The notes under the pieces are model-generated. The model was not told where the DNA came from. It searched no databases and saw only the letters and a program-made list of their open reading frames with translations. Source: an uncultured bacterium (GTDB lineage Bacteria; Verrucomicrobiota; Verrucomicrobiia; Verrucomicrobiales; V1-33). Taken from it: DNA of 64,000 bases. A program made the position numbers and the translations under genes. Where the stretch lies: the NCBI GenBank assembly GCA_903936775.1, contig CAIZWU010000273.1, positions 18,030 through 82,029 of the forward strand, given 5' to 3'. Numbering within the stretch: position 1 is the stretch's first letter; the number at the start of each line of letters is the position of its first letter. This document shows positions 1 through 46,371 of this stretch, in pieces.

Positions 1-2817
1 GTTTTCATATTCGCCGGTCATGCGCCATGTCATTCCTTGCCAGTCGATGGTTTTCAATTTCTGCTCGATCTCCTGGACGAAGCCGCCCAAGTCCCGGTCC
101 TGCACGTTGGACTGGACATAGGCGCGGAGGCGTCCGTTCTCGGAAGCAATTTCATTGGCTCCGGTTTCCCGGGTGATTTTCGCCACCATGCCCAAGGGAA
201 TCGCGGTGGCCGATGAGGCCCCGCCTGCCATGCCCGCCGGGGCCGCGGGAGCTGCCGCGCCGCCACCCATTCCGCCGCCACCCATGCCCCCGCCGGTTGG
301 TGCAGCAGAGGCAGATACCGGGGCCGCGCCGGGACGCGTGGTGATGAGAAGACGGCTCAGTTTTTCAATGTCATCACGCTCGCCGCGCTCCACCCTCACT
401 TGGATGGGATATCGCTCGCGGCCTTCGATGGTGGTGCTGACGTTTTTTCCGCCCGTAGCGACTTCCACGGCGTCCAAAACTTCACGCACCGTCAGGCCGT
501 AGCGGGCAATGGCCCGCCGGTCCACTTTGATATTCAGATAGGGCTTGCCTTGGATGCGGGAGGGGGAAACCCCGGTCGCTCCTTCGATCCCGTTCACCAG
601 CTTCTCGACCTCGAAGGCTTTCTGTTGGAGCTGGTCAAGATTGTCGCCGTAAATTTTGATCCCCACCTGGGCACGGATGCCGGTGTAGAGCATGAGGATG
701 CGGTTTTCGATGGGTTGCAGCAAAGCGGGCACATAGCCCACCAGCTTCATCTTTTCGGTGAGCTCGGCTTTCAGTTTGTCGATGGTCATGCCCTCCCGCC
801 AGACGGGATTCCGCTTCATGGTGAAGCGGCCATCCGGGACATATTCCGGCTTCAGCATGATGGTGGTTTCCAACATCTCCGTCGGCGCGGGATCGGTGGC
901 GCTTTCAAAGCGGCCGAGTTTACCCGCGACAGTAGCCACTTCCGGGATTTGGCTGATGATGGTATCCTGCCACGCCATGACACGCTGGATTTCCTTCAGT
1001 CCCGTTTTCGGCATCAGCACTGGCATAAAAAGCAGACTGCCTTCATTGAGCGGCGGCATGAATTCTTTGCCGAATCCGGCAGTGAGCTGGGCCAACCGGG
1101 GCCAGCCGCCCTCGCGCAATTGCTTCACTGTTGTGCGGGGCAGGCCGAACGCGACCACCAGCGCAGTGGCCAGAATCCCCAAGGCCAACGTCACCACGGT
1201 GCGGCGGTGATTCAGCGCCCAATTCAATACCGGATCATAGACGCTCAGGAGAAAGCGCATGATGACATTGTCCTTCTCCGCATGGAACGGCCCGCGCACC
1301 AGCAGGGAGCACAGCACCGGCACCATGGTCACGGCCAGCAGCGTGGAGCCGATCATGGCGAAGGTCTTGGTGAACGCCAGCGGATGGAACAGCTTCCCTT
1401 CCTGACCGCTCAGAGCAAACACCGGCACGAAGGCGAGGATGATGATCGCCATCGCAAAAAAGATAGGCCGCCCCACCTGACGGCAGGCCGCCAGCGTGAC
1501 GTGCCACGTCTCCGGACGGGTCAACGCGCTGCCCTTCTTTTCCTCCGCCTGTTCCGCATGGCGGATCACATTTTCCGTGACCACGATGGCCGCATCCACC
1601 AGCACGCCGATGGCAATGGCGATGCCGGTCAGCGACATGATGTTGCTGGTGATGCCGAATTCCTTCATCAGGAGGAACGAAATCAAAATCGACACTGGCA
1701 GCGGCAGGGTGACGATAAGGATGCTGCGGAAGTGCCAGAGGAACAGAATGTGGGCGAGGGTGACGAGAATGATTTCTTCCAACAGGGCGTGTTTCAGGGT
1801 GCCGATGGTGCTGTCGATCAGCTCGCTGCGGTCGTAGAAAGGTTTGATGGAAATCCCCGGCGGCAGGCTGGGGGAAATCTGCGCGATGCGCTCTTTGATG
1901 TTTTCGATCACCGCCTTGGCGTTCTCCCCGGTGCGCATCACCACCGTGCCGCCCACCACTTCATGGCCATTGAGGTCCAGCGCCCCGCGCCGGAAATCCC
2001 CGCCAATCTGCACCGTCGCGATGTCCTTCAAAAAGAGCGGCGTGCCCTCCATCGTCTTCAGGGCTATCAATTCAAGATCCTCAGTGGTTTCGACCAGACC
2101 GATGCCCCGCAGCACAAATTCCGCGCCGTTTTCCTCCACCACTTTTCCGCCCACATTGAGGTTGGCGTTCTGCACCGCCGTCATCACTTCCATCAGGCTG
2201 ACGCCGGCGGAACGCATCTTGGTGGAAGACAACTCAATCTGATACTGTTTCACAAAGCCGCCAATGCTCGCGACTTCCGCGATGCCCGGCACGCTGGAAA
2301 GCTGATACCGGATAAACCAATCCTGAACGGAGCGCAGTTTCGCCAAATCATAGCCGCCATCCGGGGCTTTTTCCGGGTCCACATCGAGGTAATATTGATA
2401 GACCCAACCAAGGCCGGTGGCATCCGGCCCGAGTTGTGGTTTGACGCCTTCCGGCATGGATGCTTGGAGATAGTTCAACCGCTCCAGCACGCGGGTGCGG
2501 GCAAAGTATTGATCCGTCTTGTCTTCAAAAATGATCGTGATGAGGGAGAATCCAAACATGGACGTGGCCCGGACATCCTTCACGCCGGACAATCCCTGAA
2601 GGCCGCTGGTGAGCGGATACGTCACCTGATCCTCCACTTCCTGGGGGCCGCGTCCCATCCAGTCCGCATAAACCAGCACCTGATTTTCCGTCAGGTCGGG
2701 GATGGCATCGACCGGCGTCAGGTAAACGGCACGCACCCCCAGCGCCACCAGCATGAGCACGCCACAGGCGACGAGGAACCGGTTTTTCAGGCTCCATTCG
2801 ATGAGTTTTTCAATCAT
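1..2817 (-). CDS. cusA: CusA/CzcA-family heavy-metal RND efflux pump, inner-membrane subunit (partial; 3' end runs off the left window edge)
   Basis: Absent from the ORF track because no stop codon lies inside the window. My minus-strand translation from the ATG at 2817 reads MIEKLIEWSLKNRFLVACGVLMLVALGVRAVYLTPVDAIPDLTENQVLVYADWMGRGPQEVEDQVTYPLTSGLQGLSGVKDVRATSMFGFSLITIIFED, a canonical CusA/AcrB-superfamily N-terminus. The frame is still open at nt 1 (...IDWQGMTWRMTGEYEN). It lies downstream of the OMF and MFP genes in the same orientation. Confidence 0.9.
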   Translation of the reverse strand, partial: MIEKLIEWSLKNRFLVACGVLMLVALGVRAVYLTPVDAIPDLTENQVLVYADWMGRGPQEVEDQVTYPLTSGLQGLSGVKDVRATSMFGFSLITIIFEDKTDQYFARTRVLERLNYLQASMPEGVKPQLGPDATGLGWVYQYYLDVDPEKAPDGGYDLAKLRSVQDWFIRYQLSSVPGIAEVASIGGFVKQYQIELSSTKMRSAGVSLMEVMTAVQNANLNVGGKVVEENGAEFVLRGIGLVETTEDLELIALKTMEGTPLFLKDIATVQIGGDFRRGALDLNGHEVVGGTVVMRTGENAKAVIENIKERIAQISPSLPPGISIKPFYDRSELIDSTIGTLKHALLEEIILVTLAHILFLWHFRSILIVTLPLPVSILISFLLMKEFGITSNIMSLTGIAIAIGVLVDAAIVVTENVIRHAEQAEEKKGSALTRPETWHVTLAACRQVGRPIFFAMAIIILAFVPVFALSGQEGKLFHPLAFTKTFAMIGSTLLAVTMVPVLCSLLVRGPFHAEKDNVIMRFLLSVYDPVLNWALNHRRTVVTLALGILATALVVAFGLPRTTVKQLREGGWPRLAQLTAGFGKEFMPPLNEGSLLFMPVLMPKTGLKEIQRVMAWQDTIISQIPEVATVAGKLGRFESATDPAPTEMLETTIMLKPEYVPDGRFTMKRNPVWREGMTIDKLKAELTEKMKLVGYVPALLQPIENRILMLYTGIRAQVGIKIYGDNLDQLQQKAFEVEKLVNGIEGATGVSPSRIQGKPYLNIKVDRRAIARYGLTVREVLDAVEVATGGKNVSTTIEGRERYPIQVRVERGERDDIEKLSRLLITTRPGAAPVSASAAPTGGGMGGGGMGGGAAAPAAPAGMAGGASSATAIPLGMVAKITRETGANEIASENGRLRAYVQSNVQDRDLGGFVQEIEQKLKTIDWQGMTWRMTGEYEN

Positions 2818-2839
2818 GCCGTGTGAATGGTAAAGGCGG

Positions 2840-4537
2840 CTATTTGATCTCTTCCGCACATTTCAGCATTGCTTTGCCGAAGAAAGGATTGTGGCCGGGA
2901 CGCCCCTCCGTTTGGAGCCAGCGGCCTTCTTTAAAGGCTCCTTCCACGGCTTCATCGACCATGGCACACTGCCAGACCTGGAAGGCGGGAATACCGTCCG
3001 TCGTGCGCAGCGGTTCGAAAACGGATGTTGCCGCCGTGGTGAAAGCATAGAAGGCTTTGCGGGCTTCCTTAAGGTCGCTGAATCCATGAAAATGGCGGGC
3101 CTCCTCCAGCTTTTTCAAGGCGGGAGCCAGGCCGGATCTATCTTTGAGCGCTGCCGTGAGGGCTGAGGTGGTATCCATGACGGGAGCACTGGCAGCGGTA
3201 AATCCGACCAAGTCATCCAGTGCCAACGCCGCCGCCATGCCGTCCGCCACTTTCAGGAAATCACGGATGGCTGTTTGCTGGGAATCCGTCAGTTCAGGTC
3301 CGCCGGGCACTGGCATCGTCGGAGCTTTGGGAGTCATGAAGGCACGGTTCATTTCCGCCTGGCCGTCGATCAGCAGGTTGCCGTTGGTCACCACCTTACT
3401 GCCCTCGGTGAGGCCGGAAACGATTTGCACCAGGGTATCGCCGCGAGTGCCGATCCTCACCGGAGTGCGAACGTAGGAGCCGCGTTTTTCCTCAACATAA
3501 ACCACGGCTTCCGGCCCCGTCTGGATGACAGCGGAACGGGGCACGGACAGCACCTCCGGGATATCGAGTGTGACCAAGCCATCAGCGTAGAGCTTGTGGA
3601 GCAATTCACGGCGGCCTTCGACCATGGGATTTTCCAGTTCCACCCGGACACTAGTGGAGCGACTGGCCTCGTTGAAATTGGGATCGATGAACGTGATCTT
3701 CCCCGTGAAGACTTTGTCGGTAACTGCCGGGGTGGTGACGGCCACTTCCTGCCCCAGCTTGATCCATGGGATGTCCTGCTCGTAGGCGTCGAACATAAAC
3801 CACATGATGGAAAAGTCCGCGATGGCGAACATCTTCTGACCGGCGGTGACATACTGGCCCTCATAGACTTCATGCTCGACGACCGTGCCTCCCAATGGCG
3901 ACAAAATTTCCGAAGTAAGGGCATCGGCAGGTTTCTTATCCAACGCTCCAATTTGAGCGGGAGTCAGGCCCATTTGACGCAGACGGAGCGCCGTGTTCTT
4001 CCGCAGCTCACCCGTGAGCTGACGGTATTCCCGTTCCGCCGAAAGCAGGGTTGGGCTGTAGATCAGCGCCAACGGATCACCCTGCACGACTTCAAAACCG
4101 TGATGATTCGCAAAGAGCTTGTCCACCCGGCCATCCACGTAGGCACTGATAATCTGATGGCGGCGTTCGTCGTCGTCGATACGACCGGCGACTTTCAGGG
4201 TCTTCACCAGCTTCTGCTTTTTGGCCTCGGCAGTTTGCACATTGAGGACTTGAATCATGTTGTCATCCAGTGGCACCGCATCCGGGCTTTCCGTGTCGCC
4301 CATGCCCGTGCCGGCGGCGCTGGTTTTGTAGAAGGCGGTCGTATCCATCCCACACACGGTGCAGCGCTGGTGGGTGGGATAGCGCGGATGGCCTCCCATG
4401 GGACATTGGTAGTAACTCACCTCGCGTCCAGGCTTCATCGCGCTGCCCGTCGCCGTTGGCGCGGGCTTTGAGGCAAAAAACCAAGTGACAGTCGCCGTCA
4501 GAAGGGCGGTGACGATGATAGCGGGAAGGGATTTCAT
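2840..4537 (-). CDS. cusB: Efflux RND periplasmic adaptor (CusB-like MFP) with N-terminal heavy-metal-binding motif
   Basis: ORF 2840..4579. The likely start is the internal ATG at 4537 (MKSLPAIIVTALL, signal/TM), which leaves a 19-nt gap after the upstream gene. Contains YYQCPMGGHP...CTVCGMD, a heavy-metal-binding-domain-like CxxC pair. Also shows barrel-sandwich/beta-barrel MFP-like sequence (GRIDDDERR..., VTAGQKMFAIADFS) and a C-terminal helical extension. Confidence 0.85.
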   Translation of the reverse strand: MKSLPAIIVTALLTATVTWFFASKPAPTATGSAMKPGREVSYYQCPMGGHPRYPTHQRCTVCGMDTTAFYKTSAAGTGMGDTESPDAVPLDDNMIQVLNVQTAEAKKQKLVKTLKVAGRIDDDERRHQIISAYVDGRVDKLFANHHGFEVVQGDPLALIYSPTLLSAEREYRQLTGELRKNTALRLRQMGLTPAQIGALDKKPADALTSEILSPLGGTVVEHEVYEGQYVTAGQKMFAIADFSIMWFMFDAYEQDIPWIKLGQEVAVTTPAVTDKVFTGKITFIDPNFNEASRSTSVRVELENPMVEGRRELLHKLYADGLVTLDIPEVLSVPRSAVIQTGPEAVVYVEEKRGSYVRTPVRIGTRGDTLVQIVSGLTEGSKVVTNGNLLIDGQAEMNRAFMTPKAPTMPVPGGPELTDSQQTAIRDFLKVADGMAAALALDDLVGFTAASAPVMDTTSALTAALKDRSGLAPALKKLEEARHFHGFSDLKEARKAFYAFTTAATSVFEPLRTTDGIPAFQVWQCAMVDEAVEGAFKEGRWLQTEGRPGHNPFFGKAMLKCAEEIK

Positions 4538-4556
4538 AAAAGTCTGGAAAAGGGAT

Positions 4557-5804
4557 TCAACGCCCGCCGCGCAGAGCACGCAGAGTAGCTAGTGCGGATT
4601 GTTGGGCGGCCACAAAACGGCGTTGTTCCATCCGGGCCATCAGGAGGGACCGGCGGGCTTCCAACACTTCCGCCAAAGTCGAAGTGGCGCTGATCCAGGA
4701 ATTCTCGACAGCCTGCGCGGCCTTCTCCGCATCCGGCAGAACCTCCGTGGAATAAGCGATGGCTTGGCGACCGGCATTCCGGGCCTCCGTGGTCGCCATC
4801 ACAGCCTGTGCTCCCAGCTCGCGCTGGGCACTGGCAATGTCTTTCAGCGCGGCTTCCTGCTCCAGCCGGGCGCGGGCTTCCTTGGCATCATAGACGGATT
4901 TATTCCACCACGGCAGCGTCACGCGGACTCCCAGCATCACGTCCCGCAGGTCGCCCCCGCTATAAACATTGCTCTCCAGGCTGATCGCCACCACTGGTTT
5001 CCGCTCCTCACGGGCGATAGCGGTTTCCGCCCCGGCGGCATCCGCCATGTGATGCAAAGCCGCGAGGCGGGGATGCCTGGCTATCAGAAATTTCCATTCG
5101 TTGCTGATCTCCGGGGCGGCATCCGAAACCGGGGGCAGCGCCAGAGTGCCCCATTCCTGAATGACCGGACGCCCCAGCAGGAGATTGAGTTGCTGGGCAA
5201 GGCGAAGCCGTTCGCGCTGTGCCGCCGCCAGTTTTTGCCGCTCCTGGGTGAGTTCGCTTTTGAGCCGCAAAGGACCGGCGGCATTGGCCGTCAAGTCCTT
5301 GAGCTTCTCCGTGGCGTTGGTGCTCATCCGTTCCACCCAGGTTAGCTGCTCCGCTTCAATCACAAGCACTTCATCGGAGAGCGCCAGTTCCAGTGCGGTC
5401 TTCGCCACTTCCAATTCCAACATATTTCCCGCAATGCCGACCTCGGCCGCTGCGGCTTGTTCCTCCGCCAGCGCCTTCCCGCGCTGGGCCTGATAAAGTC
5501 CCCGGCGGGGCAACTGTTGCTCGGCCATCAGCCTGATATCGCCATCATCCGCCCGCATGGAATTCCGCGCTCCCGTCAGTCCCAGGCCCAGCATTGGATC
5601 CTCCCAAAGCCGCACCCCGCCCACCGCCTCCCGCGCCGCTTCCACCCGTGCCAGCGCTGCAGCTACCGTCGGATGGCTGTGCGTGGCTTCCGCCTGCCAC
5701 GCCGCCAGAGTGGCGGCATCCGCCACGCGTGCCTTGGCCGCACTACGGGGGGCAGCTTGGCTCACCGACAGCAAGGACAGGAAAATAGGAAGTAGGCGGA
5801 GCAT
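4557..5804 (-). CDS. TolC-family outer-membrane efflux factor (CusC-like)
   Basis: 415 aa with signal peptide MLRLLPIFLSLLSVSQA. Ala/Leu/Gln/Arg-rich coiled-coil composition with two-fold internal repeat character typical of OMF proteins. It is the first gene of the OMF-MFP-RND operon. Confidence 0.8.
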   Translation of the reverse strand: MLRLLPIFLSLLSVSQAAPRSAAKARVADAATLAAWQAEATHSHPTVAAALARVEAAREAVGGVRLWEDPMLGLGLTGARNSMRADDGDIRLMAEQQLPRRGLYQAQRGKALAEEQAAAAEVGIAGNMLELEVAKTALELALSDEVLVIEAEQLTWVERMSTNATEKLKDLTANAAGPLRLKSELTQERQKLAAAQRERLRLAQQLNLLLGRPVIQEWGTLALPPVSDAAPEISNEWKFLIARHPRLAALHHMADAAGAETAIAREERKPVVAISLESNVYSGGDLRDVMLGVRVTLPWWNKSVYDAKEARARLEQEAALKDIASAQRELGAQAVMATTEARNAGRQAIAYSTEVLPDAEKAAQAVENSWISATSTLAEVLEARRSLLMARMEQRRFVAAQQSALATLRALRGGR

Positions 5805-5960: not shown

Positions 5961-6254
5961 TTAGCGCATCGCCGAGCAGCCTGCCTTGGTCATGGTGGCC
6001 ATGGTCGCGCAGCACTTCTGTCCGGTGCAGTTGACCATCTTGCTGACGGAATAGCCGGGACCGCCCCGGCGACCGCCAAAGTCCACCACCTCGGTGCGTT
6101 TCATGGTGCATTGAGGACCGGTAGGCTGGGCGGTGCGGACGATCTTTTGAGCGTCCGTAGCCTGCTGAAAGATAAAGCCCGGACGGTTGGGGCCAGCCTG
6201 AGCGAAAGAAGCGAAGCCAAGGATGGCAGTCAGGATTGCGAGGGTCGTTTTCAT
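5961..6254 (-). CDS. Small secreted Cys/Met-rich protein (hypothetical; possible periplasmic metal-binding protein)
   Basis: Internal ATG at 6254 gives MKTTLAILTAILGFASFAQA, a clear signal peptide. The C-terminus CTGQKCCATMATMTKAGCSAMR is rich in Cys and Met. It sits immediately upstream of the cus-like operon on the same strand. Confidence 0.4.
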   Translation of the reverse strand: MKTTLAILTAILGFASFAQAGPNRPGFIFQQATDAQKIVRTAQPTGPQCTMKRTEVVDFGGRRGGPGYSVSKMVNCTGQKCCATMATMTKAGCSAMR

Positions 6255-6550
6255 GGGATTGGGGTGTTGTGTTTGGGTAGTTGCTTTGATTGGGCGGGAG
6301 GCTTCGAGCCCCCACCTTTTCATCCCCGCCTACGCTGTAACTAAGGAAATCCCGCGAAGTTCCTGCGTCTCCTGCTGAAGTGCGACGCCGCCCAATGCGG
6401 ACGTATCGACGTCGTGGCAACCGGGAGGTCGTGGATTACCGCTCAGGCGTGCTTGTGAATTGCCCGGTATTTCCGACCGGTGATCCAGGAAAAAGGAAGC
6501 CAAGGAAATAATTTTAGGAAATCTTTGCCTCGGACGGTCCAAAACGATCC

Positions 6551-7243
6551 TTGGAAACGAGGTATCTTCGGAACATCTCGCGAATGAACCCCTCTCTAAC
6601 TTACAGCAACATGGACGACGACGACCTCTCACTCCTTCTTTCCGAGCCTGACACGGCATCACGGCAGGAAGCATACGACGCCATAGTCGCCAAATACTGG
6701 AAACCCATGTGTTGCCTCCTGAAGGATCAGGGCATCACAAATTTCTCGGATCAGGAGGACATTGTCGTCGTCGCCTTCCGGCAATTTCACCGCCATGCGA
6801 TGGAAGGCATCAGCCTTGATGGTGAGAATTTCCGACAACTCTTATTCACCGTGGTGAAACGAAGGGGTATTGATCATCTGAGGCGCAAGGGGGCGGAGAG
6901 AAGAGGGGCTGAAGCCTACGAGGATTACGTGACGAATGAGACACGGGCGATTCTCAGCGCGGAAAATGCGAGCATGGCATGGTTGGATCGAACCCGTGAC
7001 GGCAGCGCTGCGGCTATCATGGAAGATTTCCGCAAGACAGTGCCAGTGCTGCCTCGCCAGCAAGAAGCCGCCGCAAGAGCTGTGTCCTTGCTGCTCGAAA
7101 GGAATTCACTCCTCTCCGGGGAAAACATCCGCGACGCCATGCAGGCATTTACAGGGGGGCCGGTCACTTTACCCGCCGCAAAATCCGCTTGGACCGGAGT
7201 GCGAGAAAAGTTCCGGGAATTTCTGAAAAATCGGCGCTCCTGA
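6551..7243 (+). CDS. ECF-type sigma-70 family factor (divergent)
   Basis: Region-2-like segment EAYDAIVAKYWKPMCCLL...QEDIVVVAFRQF and region-4-like segment VLPRQQEAAARAVSLLL...LSGENIRDAM...AAKSAWTGVREKFREFL. The true start may be the internal Met at 6584 or 6611. Confidence 0.55.
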   Translation: METRYLRNISRMNPSLTYSNMDDDDLSLLLSEPDTASRQEAYDAIVAKYWKPMCCLLKDQGITNFSDQEDIVVVAFRQFHRHAMEGISLDGENFRQLLFTVVKRRGIDHLRRKGAERRGAEAYEDYVTNETRAILSAENASMAWLDRTRDGSAAAIMEDFRKTVPVLPRQQEAAARAVSLLLERNSLLSGENIRDAMQAFTGGPVTLPAAKSAWTGVREKFREFLKNRRS

Positions 7244-7282
7244 TTTTCCCATCCTGACAACAACCCTTATCCCCAATTTTTC

Positions 7283-7651
7283 ATGACACACGAATTTTCA
7301 GACGGAGCAATCGATGCCCTGATCGCGGCTTCCCTTCGTCAAAAATATACCTCGGACACACCCAGCGAGGAAAACATCGAGGCTGCAATCAAAGCAGCCT
7401 CCATCAACGATCCGGAGGACGCCGAGCGCCTGCAGCGGATCCGCAACCGGTTGAATCAAAAATCGGGAGGGGCTCCCGCATCCACACCTCTCCGGAAGAG
7501 CGCAGGTCCATGCATGGCCATGAACCGTAAACACGATCAAGAGGAGTTTTGTGAATCCACACAGCAAGCCTTGGAGGAAGCCCGGAGGAAGGCCTTGGAG
7601 GAACTGCTGAAAGAAGAAAAGGAAGGAGGATCCGAAAATGATAACATCTGA
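7283..7651 (+). CDS. Hypothetical acidic/coiled-coil protein (possible sigma partner)
   Basis: 122-aa ORF between the sigma-like gene and ImmA. Its end overlaps the ImmA start by 14 nt. I recognise no motif. Confidence 0.4.
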   Translation: MTHEFSDGAIDALIAASLRQKYTSDTPSEENIEAAIKAASINDPEDAERLQRIRNRLNQKSGGAPASTPLRKSAGPCMAMNRKHDQEEFCESTQQALEEARRKALEELLKEEKEGGSENDNI

Positions 7652-8420
7652 AGAACGGCTTGCCGCTCAAATTCTCGATGCCCTCGAGTTGAAGAAGGTG
7701 CCCATTGACGTGTTTGAGATCGCCCGCAAAGAAAAAATCAAACTGTGCCCTACCCATGGCAGCACGGGTTTCTGTGGAAGACTCGAATATTTTCCCGATC
7801 TTGGCAGATTTCTTCTGTTTTATCCGGACCACCCGGATGCGGAGGTTAATCCCCGTATCCGATTTTCGATCGGTCATGAGCTGGGCCATTACTACATAGA
7901 AGAGCATCGGGAGCGACTGATGCGTGGGGAGTTTCATTCCTCGGAATCCGGCTTCATCTGCGAAAAAACATTTGAGATGCAGGCGGATTCCTTCGCCTCC
8001 GGCTTACTTCTTCCCGAACGCACGCTTACCCGATTTCTCCAATCCAAAGGCCGCAATTTCCTCACCTTGCAGGAGATGCTGACGTTGGCGGAGCGATGTG
8101 CCACTTCCAGGGAATGCGCCGCCATTCGCTATGCCAAATTTGCGGAGGAAAAATGCGCCGTGGTTGTGTCCCGAGGTGACAATGTCCTCTACTCCATATC
8201 CTCCGATGATGCGGCCCGCATCGCCCTGCGTCTCAAACACGGCAGCCAAGTTCCGCCCCAATCAGCAGCTCGAAGAGCAACGACTGCGTCGATAACCGAG
8301 GGTGAAATTCCCGGTTCGGCATGGTTCCCGTGGACCAATGTCCGAACCCTGTCCGAGGAATCCATCGCGCTCGGGTATGGAGGATTGGTCCTTACTTTGG
8401 TGGCATATGCACATTCTTAA
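7638..8420 (+). CDS. ImmA/IrrE-family (M78, DUF955) zinc metallopeptidase
   Basis: Diagnostic motif FSIGHELGHYYIEEH (HExxH) followed by EMQADSFASGLLLP, typical of ImmA/IrrE. Confidence 0.85.
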   Translation: MITSEERLAAQILDALELKKVPIDVFEIARKEKIKLCPTHGSTGFCGRLEYFPDLGRFLLFYPDHPDAEVNPRIRFSIGHELGHYYIEEHRERLMRGEFHSSESGFICEKTFEMQADSFASGLLLPERTLTRFLQSKGRNFLTLQEMLTLAERCATSRECAAIRYAKFAEEKCAVVVSRGDNVLYSISSDDAARIALRLKHGSQVPPQSAARRATTASITEGEIPGSAWFPWTNVRTLSEESIALGYGGLVLTLVAYAHS

Positions 8421-8434
8421 TCATCGATTCTATT

Positions 8435-8656
8435 ATGAATAAAAACCAACACGTCGTCCCCACCGATACCGGGTGGGCTGTCCGCGGAGCCGGTAACGAG
8501 CGCCGCACTTCCCTCCACGATACGCAGGCCCAAGCCATCGCGGCGGCCCGCGAAATCGCCCGCAATCAGCACAGCGAGCTGCTGATCCATCGCCCGAACG
8601 GGCAAATCCGAGCCCGCGACAGCTACGGCAACGATGACTGCCCGCCTCCCGGCTGA
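8435..8656 (+). CDS. DUF2188 domain protein
   Basis: From the internal ATG at 8435: MNKNQHVVPTDTGWAVRGAGNERRTSLHDTQAQAIAAAREIARNQHSELLIHRPNGQIRARDSYGNDDCPPPG. This matches the DUF2188 pattern (GWAV..G..R....F.TQ.EAI..AR..A.....EL.IH...G.IR..DSYGNDP.PP.G). Confidence 0.8.
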   Translation: MNKNQHVVPTDTGWAVRGAGNERRTSLHDTQAQAIAAAREIARNQHSELLIHRPNGQIRARDSYGNDDCPPPG

Positions 8657-8742
8657 TCTTTTCCGATTCTCGCAAAAGCCTGCCGACCGTGTGCCGGGTC
8701 GGCAGGCTCCTTTAACACGGCACTCCCCCTTATACCGACAGA

Positions 8743-9081
8743 ATGAAAACAAACGATAACCCCACCCCCGACGGGCCGCAGAGCGGCGATCACGAAGAAT
8801 TTGAAGACCTCGAACTGTGCTCCCGTGAGGGCCGCCAACCACGATGTGTCCACAAATACCGAATCAAAATTGATGACCGCCACCACATCGTCCCGGTCAG
8901 CCACATGACAGGGCTGCAACTCGTGGAACTCTCTGGATCCTGCAATCCGGGGAAGACAAAGCTCCGGCAGAAATTCGCCGATGGACGTGCCGTCACCATT
9001 GGCCCTGACCAGAAAGTCGATTTCACCACACCGGGCGTGGAGTGCTTCTTCACCCTGCCCTGCGACCAAACCGACGGCTGA
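8743..9081 (+). CDS. Ubiquitin-like beta-grasp protein (multiubiquitin family), C-terminal Gly
   Basis: YRIKIDDRHHIVPVSHMTGLQLVELSG...KLRQKFADGRAVTIGPDQKVDFTTPGVECFFTLPCDQTDG-stop. It resembles the multiubiquitin domain pattern (Y.I.V....y.v....itG..il.la...p....L........ig.de.vdl..pgverF.tlp.dqTeG) and ends directly in Gly. Confidence 0.8.
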   Translation: MKTNDNPTPDGPQSGDHEEFEDLELCSREGRQPRCVHKYRIKIDDRHHIVPVSHMTGLQLVELSGSCNPGKTKLRQKFADGRAVTIGPDQKVDFTTPGVECFFTLPCDQTDG

Positions 9082-9085
9082 CATC

Positions 9086-9487
9086 ATGCGCCGCGAGTTT
9101 GTTCTTCCCTCAAAGGACGTGCTCCACCTGGATTCGCTGGGCCTGCCGTGGGAAACTGTCGGCCGTCCGCAGCAGGGTGGAGCACATGTTCTTATCCACC
9201 AATTCAGGGTGCCTCCGGGATACCATGTGGAGGCCGCCACCGTGGCTCTGCGGATTGAGCCGCTTTATCCTGACGTGCAGATCGATATGGCCTACTTCAA
9301 CCCCGCCCTCTCCCGGACGGACGGAAAAGGAATCCATCAAATTGTGGCTGAGAGCATTGATGGCCAGCTTTTCCAGCGGTGGTCCCGGCACCGCACCACG
9401 GCAAACCCGTGGCGTCCGGGGATCGACTGTCTCGCCACCCATCTTGGCCAAGTTGAACACTGGCTGACCAACGAATTGACCCGATGA
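9086..9487 (+). CDS. Prokaryotic E2-like protein (Prok-E2 family E-like)
   Basis: Internal ATG at 9086, 4 nt after the Ubl stop. Motifs PPGYHVEAATVALRIEPLYPDVQIDMAYFNPAL...FQRWSRH...WRPGIDCLATHL fit the family pattern (fP..yP....D.fy..P.l......wq.wSrH...WrPg.D.l.tHl). Contains a single Cys. Confidence 0.7.
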   Translation: MRREFVLPSKDVLHLDSLGLPWETVGRPQQGGAHVLIHQFRVPPGYHVEAATVALRIEPLYPDVQIDMAYFNPALSRTDGKGIHQIVAESIDGQLFQRWSRHRTTANPWRPGIDCLATHLGQVEHWLTNELTR

Positions 9488-10692
9488 AACCATCCCTTCG
9501 CCTGACCGGCAGACAATTGACGGAACTGAACCAACGCCTCAAAGCGGGCGATAAACCGCGTCTGCTCCATGGCATGCGGAATCGGGCCGGTGCCCCTATC
9601 CATACCGTGCGCGGTTTTGCTTCAGCGGATGAATCCGGCCTGCTCTGCGGCACCAGTGACGCCGTTTCCCATCCGGCGGCAACAGGCTGGCTGCATGTGC
9701 ATGAGGACGGCGCATTGAGCGGCGGGGTGCATAATCATGGGACAAAAGTGCCTTTTGAAAGGATCTCTGTCGCCGGGGATGATCTTCTTTTTTGGGGAGC
9801 TGAAGCAAACGTCCGGCACGAACTCGCGGCCAACACCCGCAATGTGCAGGCTTTCGGCGAAGGCACCATCCGTCGGCTCGGCGGGCTTTCCATCGCCGTG
9901 GTTGGTTGCTCCGGACTCGGCTTTCCACTGGCTCAAGCGCTCGCCGGCCAAGGAGCCGGTAGACTGGTGCTCGTGGATCCGGAAACCATTGAGGAAGTAA
10001 ATCTCAACCGCCTGCCCTGCTCCACGTTGGACGATGTGGGAATGCTCAAAGTGGAGCGACTCGCCCAGCTTCTTTCCTCCTCGGCCTTTCGTCCGGAAGT
10101 GGTGCCGCTCGCGAATTCCATCCTCACAGACCGCCGGACGGCTTTGGAAATCGCCGAGTGCGATGTGATCTTCGGCTGTCTGGACAGCGTGGAGGCAAGA
10201 CATTTCCTGAACCGGCTGGCCGCTGTTTATTGCATTCCCTACTTCGATCTCGGCGTGTGTCTGAGGGCGGATGGCAAGGGCGGTGTCTCGACGGCATGCG
10301 GATCCGTCCACTACGTCCAGCCGGATGGATCAAGTTTGCTCAGCCGGGGCGTATATGACATGCAGGCACTGCAGGATGAAGGCCTCCGCCGCACGGATCC
10401 CGCCGAGTTCACCCGCCGCCAAGCCGAAAAATACGTCCGTGGCGCGCAGGAAAAACGCCCGACCGTCCTGCCACTCAACATGGCCGTCGCGGGCCTTGCC
10501 GTGATGGAATTCATGGCCCGCCTGCACCCGTTCCGCACCAAGCCGAACGCCGAATTCGCCGGGCAGTGCCTCAGCTTCCAGCATGGCATGATCGACAGTG
10601 ACCCGGACGGGGCCTCCTGCGCTTCGCTTTCCGCGCTTTGCGGCTGTGGCGACATAACGCCTTTCCTTGGTCTTCCCTCTTTTTCCGCATGA
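9484..10692 (+). CDS. E1-like ThiF-family adenylyltransferase with ~130-aa N-terminal extension
   Basis: Rossmann nucleotide loop LSIAVVGCSGLGFPLAQALAGQGAGRLVLVDPETIEEVNLNRL, followed by FGCLDSVEARHFLNRLAAVYCIPYFDLGV. ATGA overlap with the E2-like gene (9484-9487). Confidence 0.85.
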   Translation: MKPSLRLTGRQLTELNQRLKAGDKPRLLHGMRNRAGAPIHTVRGFASADESGLLCGTSDAVSHPAATGWLHVHEDGALSGGVHNHGTKVPFERISVAGDDLLFWGAEANVRHELAANTRNVQAFGEGTIRRLGGLSIAVVGCSGLGFPLAQALAGQGAGRLVLVDPETIEEVNLNRLPCSTLDDVGMLKVERLAQLLSSSAFRPEVVPLANSILTDRRTALEIAECDVIFGCLDSVEARHFLNRLAAVYCIPYFDLGVCLRADGKGGVSTACGSVHYVQPDGSSLLSRGVYDMQALQDEGLRRTDPAEFTRRQAEKYVRGAQEKRPTVLPLNMAVAGLAVMEFMARLHPFRTKPNAEFAGQCLSFQHGMIDSDPDGASCASLSALCGCGDITPFLGLPSFSA

Positions 10693-11036
10693 ATTGGCTT
10701 CGCAAATTACTGATCTGGCTCCGGGGGATATTCGCCAGGAAACGGCAACATCTCATCCCGTGTCGGGACGTATCCGCCTTGCCACAGAAGCTCGCGCCAC
10801 ACACACTCTATGTCATCGGTCAAAACGGGCACCGGTGGCACGTCGCCATGATCTGTCCTTGCGGATGCCAAGCTACCCTGTTCATGAACCTGCTGCCGGA
10901 TGAGGAGCCATACTGGACTCTCACTGAGCACGAGAATGGCAGCGCCTCACTACATCCCTCCGTATGGCGTAACATTGGCTGCCGGAGCCATTTCTTTCTC
11001 CGGCAAGGCACCATTCAATGGTGCCGCGATGAGTGA
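10689..11036 (+). CDS. DUF6527-like metal-binding protein
   Basis: Start MNWLRK at 10689 with an ATGA overlap on the E1 stop. Motifs WHVAMICPCGCQATLFMNLLPDEEPYWTL...GSASLHPSVWRNIGCRSHFFLRQGTIQWC match my recollection of the DUF6527 signature (CPCGC ... SL.PSiW...GC.SHF....G.I.WC). Confidence 0.7.
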   Translation: MNWLRKLLIWLRGIFARKRQHLIPCRDVSALPQKLAPHTLYVIGQNGHRWHVAMICPCGCQATLFMNLLPDEEPYWTLTEHENGSASLHPSVWRNIGCRSHFFLRQGTIQWCRDE

Positions 11037-11443
11037 AACCTGTCGAAATCGCAGGATTCATGGCGAAAAGGATGCAGGCCGCCCGCGCTGGCGCGGGGAT
11101 GGAGGGATTTCGTCTGAATTCACACCGGAAAGCTTGGGACGCCTGTATCGCGTCGTTGGCTCCAAAACCAAAAACCGAAACGGTGTTTATTTGGCAGGCC
11201 ACTGCGCTACCAACGTCATTTCCACCTGTGGCATCGACCATCCGCTGGCTCGTCATCGAAGTGCAGGCCACTGTCACTGTGTTTGAAAACGGCAACGGGA
11301 TTCACGCTCAATGCGCAACGTATCGGCAAACCACGGACCGCCGCCCCAAGCCAAGGCACCTCCCGGAAAGCGGAAAAAGAAACAACTCCATTCGTATCCT
11401 GGCAGAAAAACAGACGAAGTTTTTTTGTTTGGAAACGAAATGA
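11033..11443 (+). CDS. Hypothetical ORF (GTG start overlapping the DUF6527 stop); doubtful
   Basis: GTGA overlap at 11033-11036 suggests coupling. The middle of the protein (ETVFIWQATALPTSFPPVASTIRWLVIEVQATVTVFENGNGIHAQCA) looks protein-like but the tail is basic and low-complexity. No motif found. Confidence 0.25.
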   Translation: MKPVEIAGFMAKRMQAARAGAGMEGFRLNSHRKAWDACIASLAPKPKTETVFIWQATALPTSFPPVASTIRWLVIEVQATVTVFENGNGIHAQCATYRQTTDRRPKPRHLPESGKRNNSIRILAEKQTKFFCLETK

Positions 11444-11841
11444 AGAACGCGGAAAAGCCCGCACACCGATGGTCCAGGCCGTGGGCGGAGCCACGCCATC
11501 GGGAGGGGGATAAAGTCCGGCTATGCCGGTGGCCGGGACGGCCATGTATGTCCGATGGGCAGCCTTGACCCCCGCAGGTGTGCCACGCCGCAGGCGGTCG
11601 CTTAATTACAAACGGGACGGCCCGTGGCCGCATCATTGAGGGAAGAAAAAAGCGATCCGGGCATGAAGGCGAGTGGAGCGCAGGTCACTCCGCGTGCGGG
11701 TGGCTGGAGCGTGCGAGTTTCAGGGCGGATGGTTTTGAGGAACGGAAGCCGGAACAGCACGATCCGGCTTGGCACGGCGGAAACCGGCCAGGACAGATGG
11801 TGCGCGGCTGGAGTGACAGGCGCGGAGCAACGGGGCGTTGC

Positions 11842-11872
11842 GGGGCGCTCCACGCAGAATGGGGAGCGCCCC
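11842..11872. other. Strong GC hairpin (10-bp perfect stem)
   Basis: GGGGCGCTCC (11842-11851) and GGAGCGCCCC (11863-11872) are exact reverse complements separated by an 11-nt loop. The motif CCACGCAG recurs after each arm. Confidence 0.6.
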
Positions 11873-11941
11873 ACGCAGTAGGCGCGGTGGGAAAGGCTTT
11901 TCCCCGTCACTGCCCTGATATTAGAGGATTCGAATCCTTAT

Positions 11942-14343: not shown

Positions 14344-15645
14344 TTACTTTTTGGATTTCAGGGATGATTTTGGAGCGGTTTCCCGCTGCTTTTCGATCTC
14401 AAGCCGCCGGTCTTCGAGTTCGATATTCCTCAAGGCATTCTGCTGTTGGATCGCTTCGGTCTGCTGCTGCATGGCGAGCACCTCGGGCGGGAGCGGCGTC
14501 GGTTTCTCATACGGGCCGCCCCTGCTGACCTCGGATTTTGAATCCTCCACGGCTGGCGCAATTTCATGGGAAAGGGAAGCTCCCAGTTTTGCTTTGGCCA
14601 TGATGAGCGGTTCACGCAGGTAAAGGTAGAATTGCTTGCCTGCCGGGACGCGCACGTAAGCTCCGTCGCGCTCGATGAGCTGAAGGATGCGCTCGGCATA
14701 ACGGTCGGTGACCGCTCTGGCTCCCTGCGCGGCGGCGGACTGCACGCCGGGCACAATTTGGTTCTGTCCGTAGGCGTTGGTCTGCCGCTCCGTGAATCCC
14801 TCGGCGACTCCCGAGAGGAAAGCCGCGCTGAATAGCTTGATGGAATTCGCAGTGTCCTCATTGGTGAGGACTTTGCCGCGAAGGCCTGCGCTGCCGTCCG
14901 TCAAAGCGAACTGGTCCTTCTCCGGCGTCACCTCCATATCGAGGGCGACTCCTTTGACCACAATTTCGGAAGACTTCGGATAAACGCCACCATCCGCGAG
15001 GATGACCACCCAATCCCCGGCCACATCAATGCGGTTCCGCGTTCTGTCAGGGCGGGCGATGGCGTGAAGCTCGGAGTTGGCCGGAATGAGGAGCTTTTGA
15101 TTCCAGAACAAATCGTGGGTGACCAAGCCAATCACAGGAGTTTCCAGAGTGGATGAATCCACGGTGGTAACAAGCTTAGCCCGGATCATCCGACCGTAGG
15201 GCGCGAAGTTGTCCTTGCTACCGATGAGTGGCTTCTCAGGGGGAGTTGGGGGCGGCGGCACAATGGGTGCCGCTGCTTTTGAAGGGGGCTGCACCGGCAG
15301 GAACGAAATAGGCACGATCTCTTTCGGCTGGACGGGCTTGGCGTCCTTTTTTCTGGCCTCCAGGATTTTCAATTCCTCCCGTTGCTGCGCAATGAGGGTT
15401 CGCTGTTCCTCCACATTGTCGAAGGCGGGAACAAAGGCCCGCTTATCGGTGTAGCCGTCCGTCGGCATGGGATCTTTGAAGACGGTGGCCGTCGGCGCGA
15501 CGGCTTGTTCCTTCGCCTTCGCTTTGGCTTGTTCGTCGGAGTTCTTCCCACGATTGACCACGCCCAGCGCGATCAAAGCGACGACCAGAAAGCCGAAAAA
15601 CTTCCCGTGGGCTGACTTAAAAAACTTAAAGAGGGAGGCTTTCAT
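14344..15645 (-). CDS. trbI: TrbI/VirB10 T4SS protein
   Basis: N-terminal TM (FFGFLVVALIALGVV), a Pro-rich linker (PIVPPPPTPPEKP), and a C-terminal TrbI-like domain (LIPANSELHAIARPDRTRNRIDVAGDWVVILADG...DGSAGLRGKV...KLFSAAFLSGVAEG). Confidence 0.85.
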   Translation of the reverse strand: MKASLFKFFKSAHGKFFGFLVVALIALGVVNRGKNSDEQAKAKAKEQAVAPTATVFKDPMPTDGYTDKRAFVPAFDNVEEQRTLIAQQREELKILEARKKDAKPVQPKEIVPISFLPVQPPSKAAAPIVPPPPTPPEKPLIGSKDNFAPYGRMIRAKLVTTVDSSTLETPVIGLVTHDLFWNQKLLIPANSELHAIARPDRTRNRIDVAGDWVVILADGGVYPKSSEIVVKGVALDMEVTPEKDQFALTDGSAGLRGKVLTNEDTANSIKLFSAAFLSGVAEGFTERQTNAYGQNQIVPGVQSAAAQGARAVTDRYAERILQLIERDGAYVRVPAGKQFYLYLREPLIMAKAKLGASLSHEIAPAVEDSKSEVSRGGPYEKPTPLPPEVLAMQQQTEAIQQQNALRNIELEDRRLEIEKQRETAPKSSLKSKK

Positions 15646-19899: not shown

Positions 19900-20346
19900 C
19901 TACTCCACCAGCCGCACCGTGGCCCGCCGTGCCACGGTTTGGACGCCATGCACGTCTTCCGCAGCGGGAATGGTCAGTTCGTAGGAGTTCTCGATCCCAT
20001 ATTCCCGGGCCTTGGCGTGCTCCATGGATTGCAGCATCCAGTAATGTTGTTTCGTGGCGTCGCCCTGTCCGCGGTGATAGCCTTTCTCCTCGGCGGTGAT
20101 GGCCTCCTTGTCCCCGAAGTGATTTCCTACCGCCGCCAAGCCGATGCCTGCGACTGTTCCAGCGGCCGTGATGAGGGGATCTCCATCGCTCAGCTCATGG
20201 GCCAGCAATCCGCCCCCTGCCGCTCCTGCGGCATAGGTCGTTCCTTTCCTTACCCCGGAGGCACTGCAAGCCATGTTCCCGCAACAAATGGTCCCGATAA
20301 GCAGGAACGCGGACGCACGGACGGCAAGTTGACTCACTTTTTTCAT
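19900..20346 (-). CDS. Nested or alternatively initiated lipoprotein with glycine-zipper segment (in frame with trbE)
   Basis: The ATG at 20346 begins MKKVSQLAVRASAFLLIGTICCGNMACSASG, which looks like a signal peptide plus lipobox. It is followed by YAAGAAGGGLLAHELSDGDPLITAAGTVAGIGLAAVGNH (glycine zipper). No stop codon separates it from the VirB4 body. Confidence 0.4.
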   Translation of the reverse strand: MKKVSQLAVRASAFLLIGTICCGNMACSASGVRKGTTYAAGAAGGGLLAHELSDGDPLITAAGTVAGIGLAAVGNHFGDKEAITAEEKGYHRGQGDATKQHYWMLQSMEHAKAREYGIENSYELTIPAAEDVHGVQTVARRATVRLVE

Positions 20347-27492: not shown

Positions 27493-27782
27493 ACCAAGCC
27501 TTTACCAAGGTGTTGGATTTTTACAACTCTTTATCTCGCGACGCTTTTTCGGTCTTTCTTCCATGTCTCTTCGGACCTTTCCCATCCAAATCGGCGCAAA
27601 TTGAGTCCACCGCCAAGGTGACCGAAAAAACACCGAATGCCGAGGTGCGCTGCGGCTGATAAAGCCTGGCTTGGGAGGATAATCAACCCAATAGGTTCAC
27701 CTATTAGGGACATGTGTGATAATAATTAATACTCAGAACACCCTTGCTATCGGGACCTTGCCTGTCAGGCTGGAAAAGTCCG
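27493..27782. promoter_or_regulatory. Divergent intergenic region; candidate oriT and promoters
   Basis: 290-bp gap between the divergently transcribed accessory genes and the relaxase. It contains an imperfect hairpin, CCCAATAGG-TTCA-CCTATTaGGG, at 27687-27709, and an AT-rich stretch at 27711-27740. The nic site was not identified. Confidence 0.35.
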
Positions 27783-40334: not shown

Positions 40335-40411
40335 ATCTCTTCCGCTAATTTGCTTGCTCTTTACTTGGTTTCCCGGCAAATAACTGATATTCACCGGAAA
40401 AGGTGAGTGAA

Positions 40412-45499: not shown

Positions 45500-45519
45500 C
45501 TCCCACTTCGCGCTCCATC

Positions 45520-46362: not shown

Positions 46363-46371
46363 TTAATTCCC

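Follow-up and report, generated by a model that had tools for sequence, protein, structure and literature searches.

A split Bub operon with a decayed JAB domain, preceded by a putative sigma factor- and CapP-based control module, on a verrucomicrobial contig

A 64,000-nucleotide stretch of contig CAIZWU010000273.1 from an uncultured bacterium of the Verrucomicrobiales (assembly GCA_903936775.1, positions 18,030 to 82,029), referred to here as the window, contains an operon in which genes for a sigma-like protein, a small acidic protein, a metallopeptidase, and a DUF2188 protein are followed by genes for a ubiquitin-like protein (Ubl), an E2, an E1, and a DUF6527 protein. The best explanation of this locus, considered likely though short of secure, is a Bub effector module (8743–11036) joined to a CapH/CapP-type control module based on a sigma factor (6536–8656). 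The four core genes almost certainly encode the Bub (6E/DUF6527) pathway with its oxyester chemistry. This core is known and recently characterized; the architecture, with BubA and BubB encoded separately and a dead JAB domain on the E1, is new. A first-pass annotation, made from the sequence alone, had read the locus as a Ubl-E2-E1-DUF6527 operon coupled to an extracytoplasmic function (ECF)-like sigma factor, an ImmA/IrrE peptidase, and DUF2188, and profile searches bear this reading out, weakly in the case of the sigma factor. Related loci from other genomes are designated by L numbers.

Operons of the 6E/DUF6527 class were renamed "Bub" by Ye, Gong, Chambers & Corbett (PMC11601596), whose biochemical characterization supersedes the first-pass view that the core was known merely from comparative genomics. 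In Bub systems, a tyrosine in the E1 crossover loop is catalytic and the E2 uses a serine, giving oxyester intermediates, while conjugates are stripped by the DUF6527 protein, BubE, a Ser/His protease that binds zinc through a C4 site; antiphage protection by Bub operons has so far not been demonstrated (PMC11601596). Each of the four window proteins matched the corresponding Pfam family, namely Multi_ubiq PF14452 for BubA (1.4e-10), Prok-E2_E PF14462 for BubB (3.9e-33), ThiF for the E1 (5.2e-27), and DUF6527 PF20137 for BubE (9.3e-22). The best Protein Data Bank (PDB) match of the E1 was Citrobacter BubCD (PDB 9ea5, 1.4e-38), and BubB matched Citrobacter BubB (PDB 9eae/9eav, 9e-17) with its QRWSRH and LDM/IDM segments aligned. 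BubA gave a weak match to the multi-ubiquitin protein of E. coli ZDHYS365 (PDB 9cd2).

Residues required for the published chemistry, the same ones that were probed by Ye et al., were located in each protein. BubB Ser100, His102, and Asp67 align to Citrobacter S333, H335, and D299, with WSRH occupying residues 99–102. In the E1, Tyr317 lies within EKYVRG and aligns to the catalytic-Tyr segment (Citrobacter Y370 region), and Arg176 aligns to the adenylation arginine; both residues are invariant among 14 relatives (alignment A3), and a scan of the E1 crossover loop for cysteine found none. At first pass, attention had been drawn to the single cysteine of the E2, close to WSRH. The sole cysteine is indeed present, as C115, but not the catalytic role that this suggested: Ser100-x-His102 is invariant, and because the L001 orthologue has a serine at the position of Cys115, this residue is not catalytic. 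BubE contains a C4 site (C56/C58/C60/C98) and a Ser91/His101 dyad, so that the CPCGC...GCRSH metal-ligand spacing described in the first-pass annotation (CPCGC at 56–60, GCRSH at 97–101) stands. The intervals from the serine to the cysteine (+7) and to the histidine (+10) are identical to those of Citrobacter S92/C99/H102, and the C4 and Ser/His residues are invariant across L001, L007, L009, and L015. By analogy with published BubE, the DUF6527 protein is expected to serve as the deconjugating protease here, in agreement with its earlier nomination as the missing protease (PMC11601596). Chemistry in the window is likewise expected to proceed through oxyesters rather than thioesters, the chemistry itself being taken from PMC11601596; since the Bub family uses Tyr and Ser oxyesters, an assay for thioesters would fail for the wrong reason.

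BubA terminates in ...LPCDQTDG-stop, which places Gly112 at the C terminus without a propeptide, as had been noted at first pass, and the same terminus is found in L001, L006, and L009. Ubls with a single beta-grasp domain make up 40% of Bub Ubls. Five BubA cysteines (C26, C34, C67, C101, and C107) are conserved in the window clade and absent from the L015 Ubl; these clade-specific residues may form a metal site or disulfides.

Two Bub types have been described: Type I makes a BubAB fusion together with an E1 whose attached, active JAB domain cleaves it, and Type II is marked by an E2-E1 fusion (PMC11601596). The window encodes Ubl, E2, and E1 in three separate genes and has neither a BubAB nor a BubBD fusion, and the division between BubA and BubB is common to all members of the window clade and to L015. 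Its E1 bears an N-terminal extension of ~95 residues, as compared to the ~165-residue JAB domain, and residues 1–56 are homologous to the start of the canonical BubC JAB (hhalign 96%, E 1.9e-9). Within alignment A3, E1 proteins of the window clade retain the first JAB strand and helix (LRLTGRQ...L), while two stretches are deleted: the "EAV" segment, which holds the JAB catalytic Glu, and the metal-binding segment HSHPxGxxxFSxxDD in full. A match to PF14464 (Prok-JAB) was sought in the window E1 and none was obtained. Database searching returned 703 E1 relatives at E ≤ 1e-10, and domain content was taken from the 120 relatives listed. Among these, ~11 clusters (68–100% identity, 401–405 amino acids) resemble the window E1 and contain ThiF only, and the canonical E1s (generally ≤50% identity, ~460–475 amino acids) mostly contain PF14464 plus ThiF. 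The His cluster of the E1, to which the first-pass annotation had assigned a possible protease function, was also considered as a JAMM HxH motif and ruled out, as the HVH at residues 71–73 aligns downstream of the deleted JAB motif and is replaced by RLH or RFH in orthologues; the surrounding JAB domain is decayed, with both the Glu and HxH...SxxD gone. Judging by these alignments, the E1 N-terminal extension is a catalytically dead vestige of JAB.

Loss of this activity is readily accommodated. With mature BubA provided, conjugation was unaffected by the JAB mutation D104A (Ye et al., PMC11601596). BubA of the window is both separate and already Gly-ended, so an E1-fused JAB peptidase is not needed, and the dead vestige fits a BubA that requires no processing. 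L015 has split BubA and BubB together with an intact JAB-E1, a combination which suggests that the A and B genes were split before JAB decayed. The E2 Ser-x-His/Asp triad, taken with the JAB vestige, points to Type I ancestry.

The window system is most similar to the Type I operon of Citrobacter sp. RHBSTW-00271 (BubAB-BubCD-BubE), which comprises the same families and provides the best PDB match for both E1 and E2. Shared features are the E2 Ser-x-His plus Asp, the crossover-loop Tyr, the lack of a catalytic Cys, the spacing of the BubE C4 and Ser/His residues, and a CapP regulator. In contrast to the Citrobacter system, BubA and BubB are separate rather than fused and in need of cleavage, the JAB domain is ~60 residues shorter and lacks the Glu and HxH...SxxD, the Ubl has one beta-grasp domain instead of three, and the regulator is co-directional and sigma-based. 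The Type II operon of E. coli ZDHYS365 (BubA-BubBD-BubE) shares with the window a free BubA ending in Gly, the lack of an active JAB, BubE, and the oxyester residues; however, its E2 forms a single polypeptide with the E1 and relies on Ser together with Lys and His, whereas the window E2 is separate and uses Ser-x-His/Asp, and the window E1 keeps a JAB vestige. Bil (bacterial ISG15-like) systems also combine a Ubl, E2, E1, and deconjugating peptidase in defense contexts, but have catalytic cysteines, an active stand-alone JAB (BilC), a multi-domain E1, and no DUF6527. Neither a conserved Cys at the E1 or E2 site nor a JAB gene was found in the window.

The peptidase encoded upstream of the Bub genes matched Peptidase_M78 in Pfam (1.2e-7), the PADLOC capP model (1.4e-46, model positions 6–240 of 242), and the CapP structure (PDB 7t5t, 9.7e-13). 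Its zinc motif is H80-E81-xx-H84, and HELGH is invariant in the clade. The first-pass annotation had called this protein ImmA and offered it as a candidate for the missing protease or an E3-like function; the full-length match identifies it, at the level of sequence, as the regulator CapP rather than a deubiquitinase. CapP is a protease activated by single-stranded DNA (ssDNA) that cleaves the helix-turn-helix (HTH) repressor CapH, thereby inducing cyclic oligonucleotide-based antiphage signaling system (CBASS) and other operons (Lau et al. 2022, doi 10.1101/2022.04.27.489752). CapH and CapP accompany 31% of 544 Bub operons (Ye et al., PMC11601596). The same CapP study also reported DUF2188 operons under CapH/CapP control and, in a single-sentence remark, 24 CBASS systems with a sigma-70-family gene beside capH/capP (Lau et al. 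2022, doi 10.1101/2022.04.27.489752). Searches of both strands found no HTH/Xre (CapH) gene near CapP and no active JAB gene around the operon, as had been reported at first pass. Directly upstream of the sigma cassette in L001 (2979–4494, minus strand), a classical HTH_31 gene is paired with one for Peptidase_M78, and an RNase H gene comes next; this arrangement may constitute another CapH/CapP-controlled module. The DUF2188 protein matched its Pfam family at 1.9e-26 and the PADLOC candidate PDC-S16 at 6.6e-37. It is present in L008, L009, and L013, absent in L001, L006, and L011, and apparently the sole cargo in L018.

The position that a repressor gene would occupy is taken in the window by genes for a diverged sigma-like protein and a small acidic protein. 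The sigma-like protein matched Sigma70_r2/ECF profiles weakly (E ~0.015–0.02, below the Pfam threshold) and the NCBIfam models TIGR02985 (8e-6) and sigma70-ECF (9e-4), both below curated cut-offs; the sole returns of a profile search against PDB sequences were CnrH and SigR, and the Joint Genome Institute (JGI) annotation places it in the sigma24 family. An AlphaFold2 (AF2) model with a predicted local distance difference test (pLDDT) score of 72 had ECF sigma factors as its four best Foldseek PDB matches (probability 0.95–0.97): sigmaE/RseA, two chains of SigW/RsiW, and CnrH, aligned over ~200 columns covering sigma-2 and sigma-4, with weak E-values of 0.04–0.13. Proteins encoded at the equivalent position in other phyla exceed the Sigma70_r2 threshold.

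The small protein (122 amino acids, isoelectric point 4.9) has no Pfam, NCBIfam, or PADLOC family and no HTH. Throughout the related loci, its gene is always flanked by those for the sigma factor and CapP and overlaps the latter. Aligned family members begin with a helical region, continue into an acidic linker, and carry a ..MAMN-R-K.. motif (residues 78–83); the AF2 model has three helices, a disordered linker bearing the motif, and a final helix. A nearly universal Arg lies ~30–40 residues from the C terminus and is followed by a charged helix, with motif variants GMN-R-AEE, MVA-R-KGN, and AQAA-R-EGS. When the family profile was searched against 1.84 billion representative proteins, 17 relatives were recovered, all stand-alone and without fusions. 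Among 5.8 billion proteins, the small protein falls in 3 clusters and the sigma factor in 8, indicating that both are rare at the sequence level. The IrrE protease cuts DdrO at L106|R107, before Arg107. CapH is cut by CapP at F82|R83, before Arg83 (Lau et al. 2022, doi 10.1101/2022.04.27.489752). As the cuts in CapH and DdrO precede an Arg at a similar distance from the C terminus, the conserved Arg of the small protein, Arg82 in the window, is a plausible P1' cleavage residue. The small protein is thus a putative anti-sigma factor and CapP substrate.

Gene order across genomes argues for a functional unit. The sigma factor, small protein, and CapP always occur together ahead of split Bub in L001, L006/7, L009/10, L011/12, and L013/14; L006/7 is a Verrucomicrobiales metagenome-assembled genome (MAG), and the nearest relatives of the window are Verrucomicrobiales MAGs. 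The neighborhood survey that the first-pass annotation had proposed, for co-occurrence of sigma, ImmA, and DUF2188 with the Ubl set, thus finds the cassette recurring before split Bub, with DUF2188 optional. The same cassette precedes other cargo in L008, L018, and L019. In L008 (8001–11499), sigma, small protein, CapP, and DUF2188 are followed by a VanY/Peptidase_M15_4 protein and an unknown 297-residue protein, with no Bub genes; the island around this cassette also contains AbiEi, an integrase, HsdR fragments, and Mrr.

A CapP alignment was then scanned against one genome per Genome Taxonomy Database (GTDB) species, yielding 33 loci, 28 of which were analyzed. A small HTH-less acidic protein (104–146 amino acids) is encoded directly upstream of CapP in 20 of the 28, and the gene upstream of it is sigma-like in 17 of the 18 loci that could be checked (L026 is ambiguous; L021 and L040 were left out). 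In seven of the 28, the gene immediately before CapP encodes a classical HTH CapH and a sigma factor is absent; L043 is unclassifiable. In the 27 classifiable loci, drawn from about six phyla, CapP follows either an HTH CapH or a sigma factor plus small protein, never both. Sampled upstream genes matched sigma-70 region 2 or 4 in nine cases out of ten, with L028, L030, and L032 above the Pfam threshold. The loci span Verrucomicrobiota, Planctomycetota, Acidobacteriota, Myxococcota, and Bacteroidota, and sigma-partnered and HTH-partnered CapPs form two separate clades in a neighbor-joining tree. The first-pass conjecture that the sigma factor and 122-residue protein replace the Xre partner of the peptidase consequently receives strong backing from comparative genomics. 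L015 has a divergent regulator (1–4619, minus strand) consisting of a Sigma70_r2 protein, a 223-residue unknown protein, and a fusion protein of >1100 residues that combines Peptidase_M78, UvrD helicase, and PD-(D/E)xK nuclease domains. This fusion may represent a protease with a built-in DNA damage sensor; the small-protein profile gave no significant match to the 223-residue partner in L015.

Short repeated motifs accompany these cassettes. In the window clade, one copy of GGTCC(A/C)AA-N14-CG(A/T)nnT, with a fixed 14-nucleotide spacing, is found upstream of every sigma gene; the window copy, GGTCCAAA-N14-CGAGGT at 6536–6563, ends ~20 nucleotides before the ATG at 6584. More distant sigma-type loci (L015, L028, L037, L038, L040, and L041) carry an equivalent element of matching geometry, TGTCACG(C/G)TT followed ~10 nucleotides on by CG..TA, solely before sigma and before cargo. 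The divergent loci L037 and L015 have one TGTCAC-type copy per strand, in L028 a single copy faces sigma while a tandem array of three faces the Ubl, and L038, L040, and L041, which are co-directional loci from Bacteroidota, each show exactly two, ~40 nucleotides upstream of sigma and directly after the CapP stop. These 10–12-mers are otherwise absent from the loci, where chance expectation is 0.001–0.02 per locus (five loci tested). This is the pattern that an autoregulated, dedicated sigma factor driving cargo would be predicted to leave. An exact GGTCCAAA-N14-CG...T match is also found at 63583–63610 (minus strand), inside a 330-residue open reading frame (ORF; 63001–63993); it is probably a chance occurrence, and could be a second sigma target.

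A hairpin (−28.1 kcal/mol, z −2.7) followed by a TTYAACAMGGCAC motif separates the control module from the effector module, immediately ahead of the Ubl gene. The hairpin is kept in L009 (about 4165–4196), L013, and L001; its stem shows a single compensatory change (T-A to C-G) as well as G-U wobbles. Lacking a U-tract, the element does not qualify as a canonical terminator. It could act in attenuation, in RNA processing, or as an operator, and an Rfam search of the window returned no RNA family. A sigma-54 promoter (GGCAC...TTAC) upstream of BubA was considered and rejected, as the spacing varies from 1 to 6 nucleotides between loci.

The following sequence of events is proposed, with the sigma/anti-sigma/CapP mechanism rated at slightly better than an even chance. 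At rest, the small acidic protein would keep the ECF-like sigma factor inactive. Upon appearance of ssDNA, whether from DNA damage, phage replication, or incoming DNA, CapP would be activated and would cut the small protein in its exposed linker beside conserved Arg82. The released sigma factor would fire the GGTCCAAA-N14-CGAGGT promoter of its own gene, giving positive feedback, and read-through from this promoter would produce DUF2188 and the Bub proteins. The E1 would then adenylate Gly112 of BubA and load BubA onto Tyr317 as an oxyester; BubA would move to Ser100 of BubB with assistance from His102 and Asp67, BubB would attach it to target lysines, and BubE, as a zinc-stabilized Ser91/His101 protease, would take the conjugates off. 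Directly observed in these loci are family membership, conservation of catalytic residues, JAB decay, the strict grouping of sigma factor, small protein, and CapP, and the repeated motifs. The oxyester intermediates, the proteolytic function of BubE, and the response of CapP to ssDNA are carried over to the window from the literature on homologous systems. An anti-sigma role, the cleavage site, use of the promoter, and a role in antiphage or stress responses are what we infer.

The proposed control module resembles three regulatory systems in part. With CapH+CapP of the E. coli MS115-1 CBASS (doi 10.1101/2022.04.27.489752), it shares a full-length CapP homologue with HExxH and sensor domain, a CapP gene that directly follows and overlaps that of the presumed substrate upstream of a defense-type operon, and known links with 6E systems and DUF2188. 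The window differs in having no HTH CapH but rather an HTH-less acidic partner preceded by an ECF-like sigma factor, in being co-directional with its cargo rather than divergent, and in its logic, which would be activation by sigma release instead of derepression. IrrE/DdrO of Deinococcus and ImmA/ImmR of ICEBs1 and phage phi105 likewise employ a DNA damage-activated M78 metallopeptidase that cuts a regulator near its C terminus beside a conserved residue; however, their substrates are DNA-binding HTH repressors, whereas the presumed substrate in the window has no DNA-binding domain. The arrangement is also reminiscent of sigmaE-RseA and SigW-RsiW, in which the sigma factor is co-transcribed with a small partner, a bipartite −35/−10 promoter precedes the sigma gene, and a protease frees the sigma factor, as predicted for the window. 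Those systems rely on membrane-anchored anti-sigma factors, site-1 and site-2 membrane proteases, and then ClpXP, while the window components are all soluble, with an operon-encoded IrrE/ImmA-type protease, and the signal would be cytoplasmic ssDNA.

Several points weigh against the proposed mechanism. The window sigma factor falls under both the Pfam and the NCBIfam thresholds, and its Foldseek E-values are weak (0.04–0.1). A fold search with the small protein gave no significant match to known anti-sigma domains (all E > 4). The pairing of the sigma factor with the small protein, and that of CapP with the small protein, are both predictions. The locus sample was seeded with CapP motifs of the window clade and is not an unbiased census. 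A second promoter copy was sought before DUF2188 and BubA in the window clade and none is clear, so that cargo transcripts probably start at the sigma promoter and read through the hairpin; that hairpin is strong, stands between the control and effector modules, and co-transcription across it is assumed.

Four other explanations were weighed. In the first, the proposed regulation holds, but the role of the operon is centered on the plasmid and not on phage: CapP would sense ssDNA of the plasmid entering a recipient or the host SOS state, and the operon would transiently tag host or plasmid proteins for establishment or for exclusion of competitors. Compatible with such a role are the Rep3, TrwC relaxase, coupling protein, and type IV secretion system (T4SS) genes of the same replicon, the ssDNA activation of CapP (Lau et al.), and the fact that Bub antiphage activity is not yet demonstrated (Ye et al.). 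It is nevertheless unlikely, in that orthologous cassettes are chromosomal or reside in defense islands beside AbiE, Mrr, and restriction genes, which suggests a general defense or stress function and a module that is mobile cargo rather than plasmid-specific; DUF2188 and CapP are also both associated with defense islands.

A second explanation is a split repressor, in which the sigma-4 HTH binds an operator and the small protein is a cleavable oligomerization module, cleavage by CapP derepressing a housekeeping promoter. The strong divergence of the window sigma-like protein, below family thresholds, would fit this arrangement, as would the conserved Arg ~30–40 residues from the C terminus that the small proteins share with CapH and DdrO, and the repeated TGTCAC motifs are equally readable as operators. 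However, the proteins at the equivalent position in other phyla clearly belong to sigma-70 region 2 and have retained its RNA polymerase-binding and −10-recognition region, the predicted fold matches whole ECF sigma factors including both sigma-2 and sigma-4, and the motifs are bipartite with ECF-like −35/−10 spacing and always point to the downstream gene, including the three tandem copies of L028. A split repressor is therefore regarded as decidedly unlikely.

A third possibility, that the small protein has no part in sigma control (for example as a CapP inhibitor or chaperone) and that the sigma factor is constitutive and merely co-located, draws on the lack of detectable likeness to known anti-sigma domains. 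It is made very improbable by the strict sigma-small protein-CapP order across about six phyla, the translational coupling of the small gene to CapP, the absence of sigma whenever CapP has an HTH partner, and the stand-alone nature of all 17 relatives found among the 1.84 billion representatives. Finally, an ImmA/CapP acting inside the conjugation machinery, as Ubl processor or deubiquitinase in place of JAB, would account for the missing active JAB and for the translational coupling of CapP within the same gene array, but is extremely improbable given that BubA is already Gly-ended and needs no processing, that deconjugation in this family has been demonstrated for the protease BubE, that the same CapP clade and partners precede Ubl-free cargo in L008, L018, and L019, and that the match to the capP regulator model is full-length, sensor domain included.

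The sigma-based mechanism would, if correct, amount to an undescribed third wiring of CapP and a new class of ECF sigma control. In this class, a soluble ssDNA-activated protease would destroy an HTH-less anti-sigma factor, and the sigma factor would fire TGTCAC-type promoters before itself and before interchangeable defense cargo (Bub, DUF2188, peptidoglycan peptidases, patatin, and others) over Verrucomicrobiota, Planctomycetota, Acidobacteriota, Bacteroidota, and Myxococcota. This broader claim could as readily prove wrong as right. The strict three-gene order, HTH-less partner family, separate CapP clade, and promoter motif are undescribed in the literature as far as found, apart from the one-sentence CBASS remark.

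Features of the locus and of the surrounding replicon are collected in Table 1. The ORF listing and direct reading of the sequence confirmed eight co-directional genes on the plus strand (6551–11036) together with the tight junctions recorded at first pass: a 14-nucleotide overlap of the small gene with CapP (7638–7651), a 4-nucleotide gap between the Ubl stop (9079–9081) and the E2 ATG at 9086, ATGA overlaps at 9484–9487 (E2/E1) and 10689–10692 (E1/DUF6527), and a GTGA overlap at the end of the BubE gene (11033–11036). The start of the sigma gene was placed at ATG 6584, which is kept in all related loci and is most likely the true start; strong conservation of the protein begins at MDDDD (nucleotide 6611). 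Starts were also corrected for the DUF2188 gene (8435) and the E2 gene (9086). The possible ninth gene of the first-pass annotation (11033–11443, 136 amino acids) did not hold up: it has zero family matches in Pfam and NCBIfam and, among the related loci, no counterpart except in an identical contig, and is probably not a gene. The ~900 nucleotides 3' of BubE (11033–11941) contain no supported gene. Related loci hold other genes 3' of BubE, such as DUF6880 in L009, and a possible DUF6880 remnant at this position in the window was without support. In public gene calls for the window contig, L001, L003, and L006, BubE is often missed or replaced by a spurious opposite-strand ORF, and an opposite-strand call likewise stands in place of the L013 DUF2188 gene; neighborhood surveys that start from called genes will therefore undercount both.

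Table 1. Coordinates of the operon and of plasmid-type genes in the window
Feature	Coordinates	Strand	Basis
ECF-type promoter-like element, GGTCCAAA-N14-CGAGGT	6536..6563	+	conserved motif; function putative
Diverged ECF-like sigma factor, 219 aa	6584..7243	+	weak sigma profile matches, AF2/Foldseek
Small acidic HTH-less protein, 122 aa, putative anti-sigma/CapP substrate	7283..7651	+	position, alignment, AF2; role putative
CapP, IrrE/ImmA-type Zn metallopeptidase with C-terminal GAF-like domain	7638..8420	+	PADLOC capP, PDB 7t5t
DUF2188 protein, 73 aa, optional accessory or second cargo	8435..8656	+	Pfam, PADLOC PDC-S16
12-bp GC-rich hairpin, then TTYAACAMGGCAC motif	8677..8708	+	fold energy, conservation
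BubA, single beta-grasp Ubl ending in Gly112	8743..9081	+	Multi_ubiq
BubB, Prok-E2_E, Ser100-x-His102 and Asp67	9086..9487	+	Pfam, Citrobacter BubB match
Pseudo-JAB and E1 (BubC'D)	9484..10692	+	Citrobacter BubCD match, hhalign
BubE (DUF6527) with N-terminal amphipathic extension	10689..11036	+	Pfam, residue spacing
TrbI	14344-15645		
TraG P-loop/VirB4-like ATPase gene	19900-23097		
TrwB/TraG coupling protein	23920-25383		
TrwC relaxase	27744-30854		
Rep3 initiator	32306-33667		

The replicon looks like a conjugative plasmid, as supported by the combination of Rep3, relaxase, coupling protein, and T4SS genes; the first-pass description of the operon as lying beside a T4SS on a plasmid is in keeping with the presence of Rep3, TrwC, the coupling protein, the VirB4-like ATPase, and TrbI. 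A PLSDB search found no similar plasmid and only short DUF2188 matches. Directly upstream of the operon are a Cus/Czc-type resistance-nodulation-division (RND) efflux set (400–5804, minus strand; ACR_tran, a CusB-like adaptor, and an outer-membrane factor) and a gene for a 97-residue small secreted protein (5961–6254). Elsewhere in the window (40403–52017 and 60362–61896) are a 1698-residue PA14/TSP3-repeat protein, a 1881-residue RHS-repeat protein with a C-terminal phospholipase A2-like domain, and an AbiEi/AbiEii toxin-antitoxin pair; an IS66 element is also present.

Identification of the core as Bub directs experiments to the Tyr317 and Ser100 oxyesters and to BubE, and away from the E2 Cys, the E1 His cluster, and ImmA. 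The split BubA and BubB with a dead JAB stub suggest that the JAB domain of Type I Bub serves mainly in processing of the BubAB fusion and that BubE handles deconjugation. If the sigma-based mechanism is correct, DNA damage sensing by CapP would have two outputs, derepression through CapH and activation through sigma release; the promoter motif would be recognizable enough for regulon prediction and for finding new cargo systems; and a fully cytoplasmic route with a self-encoded protease would be added to the modes of ECF sigma control.

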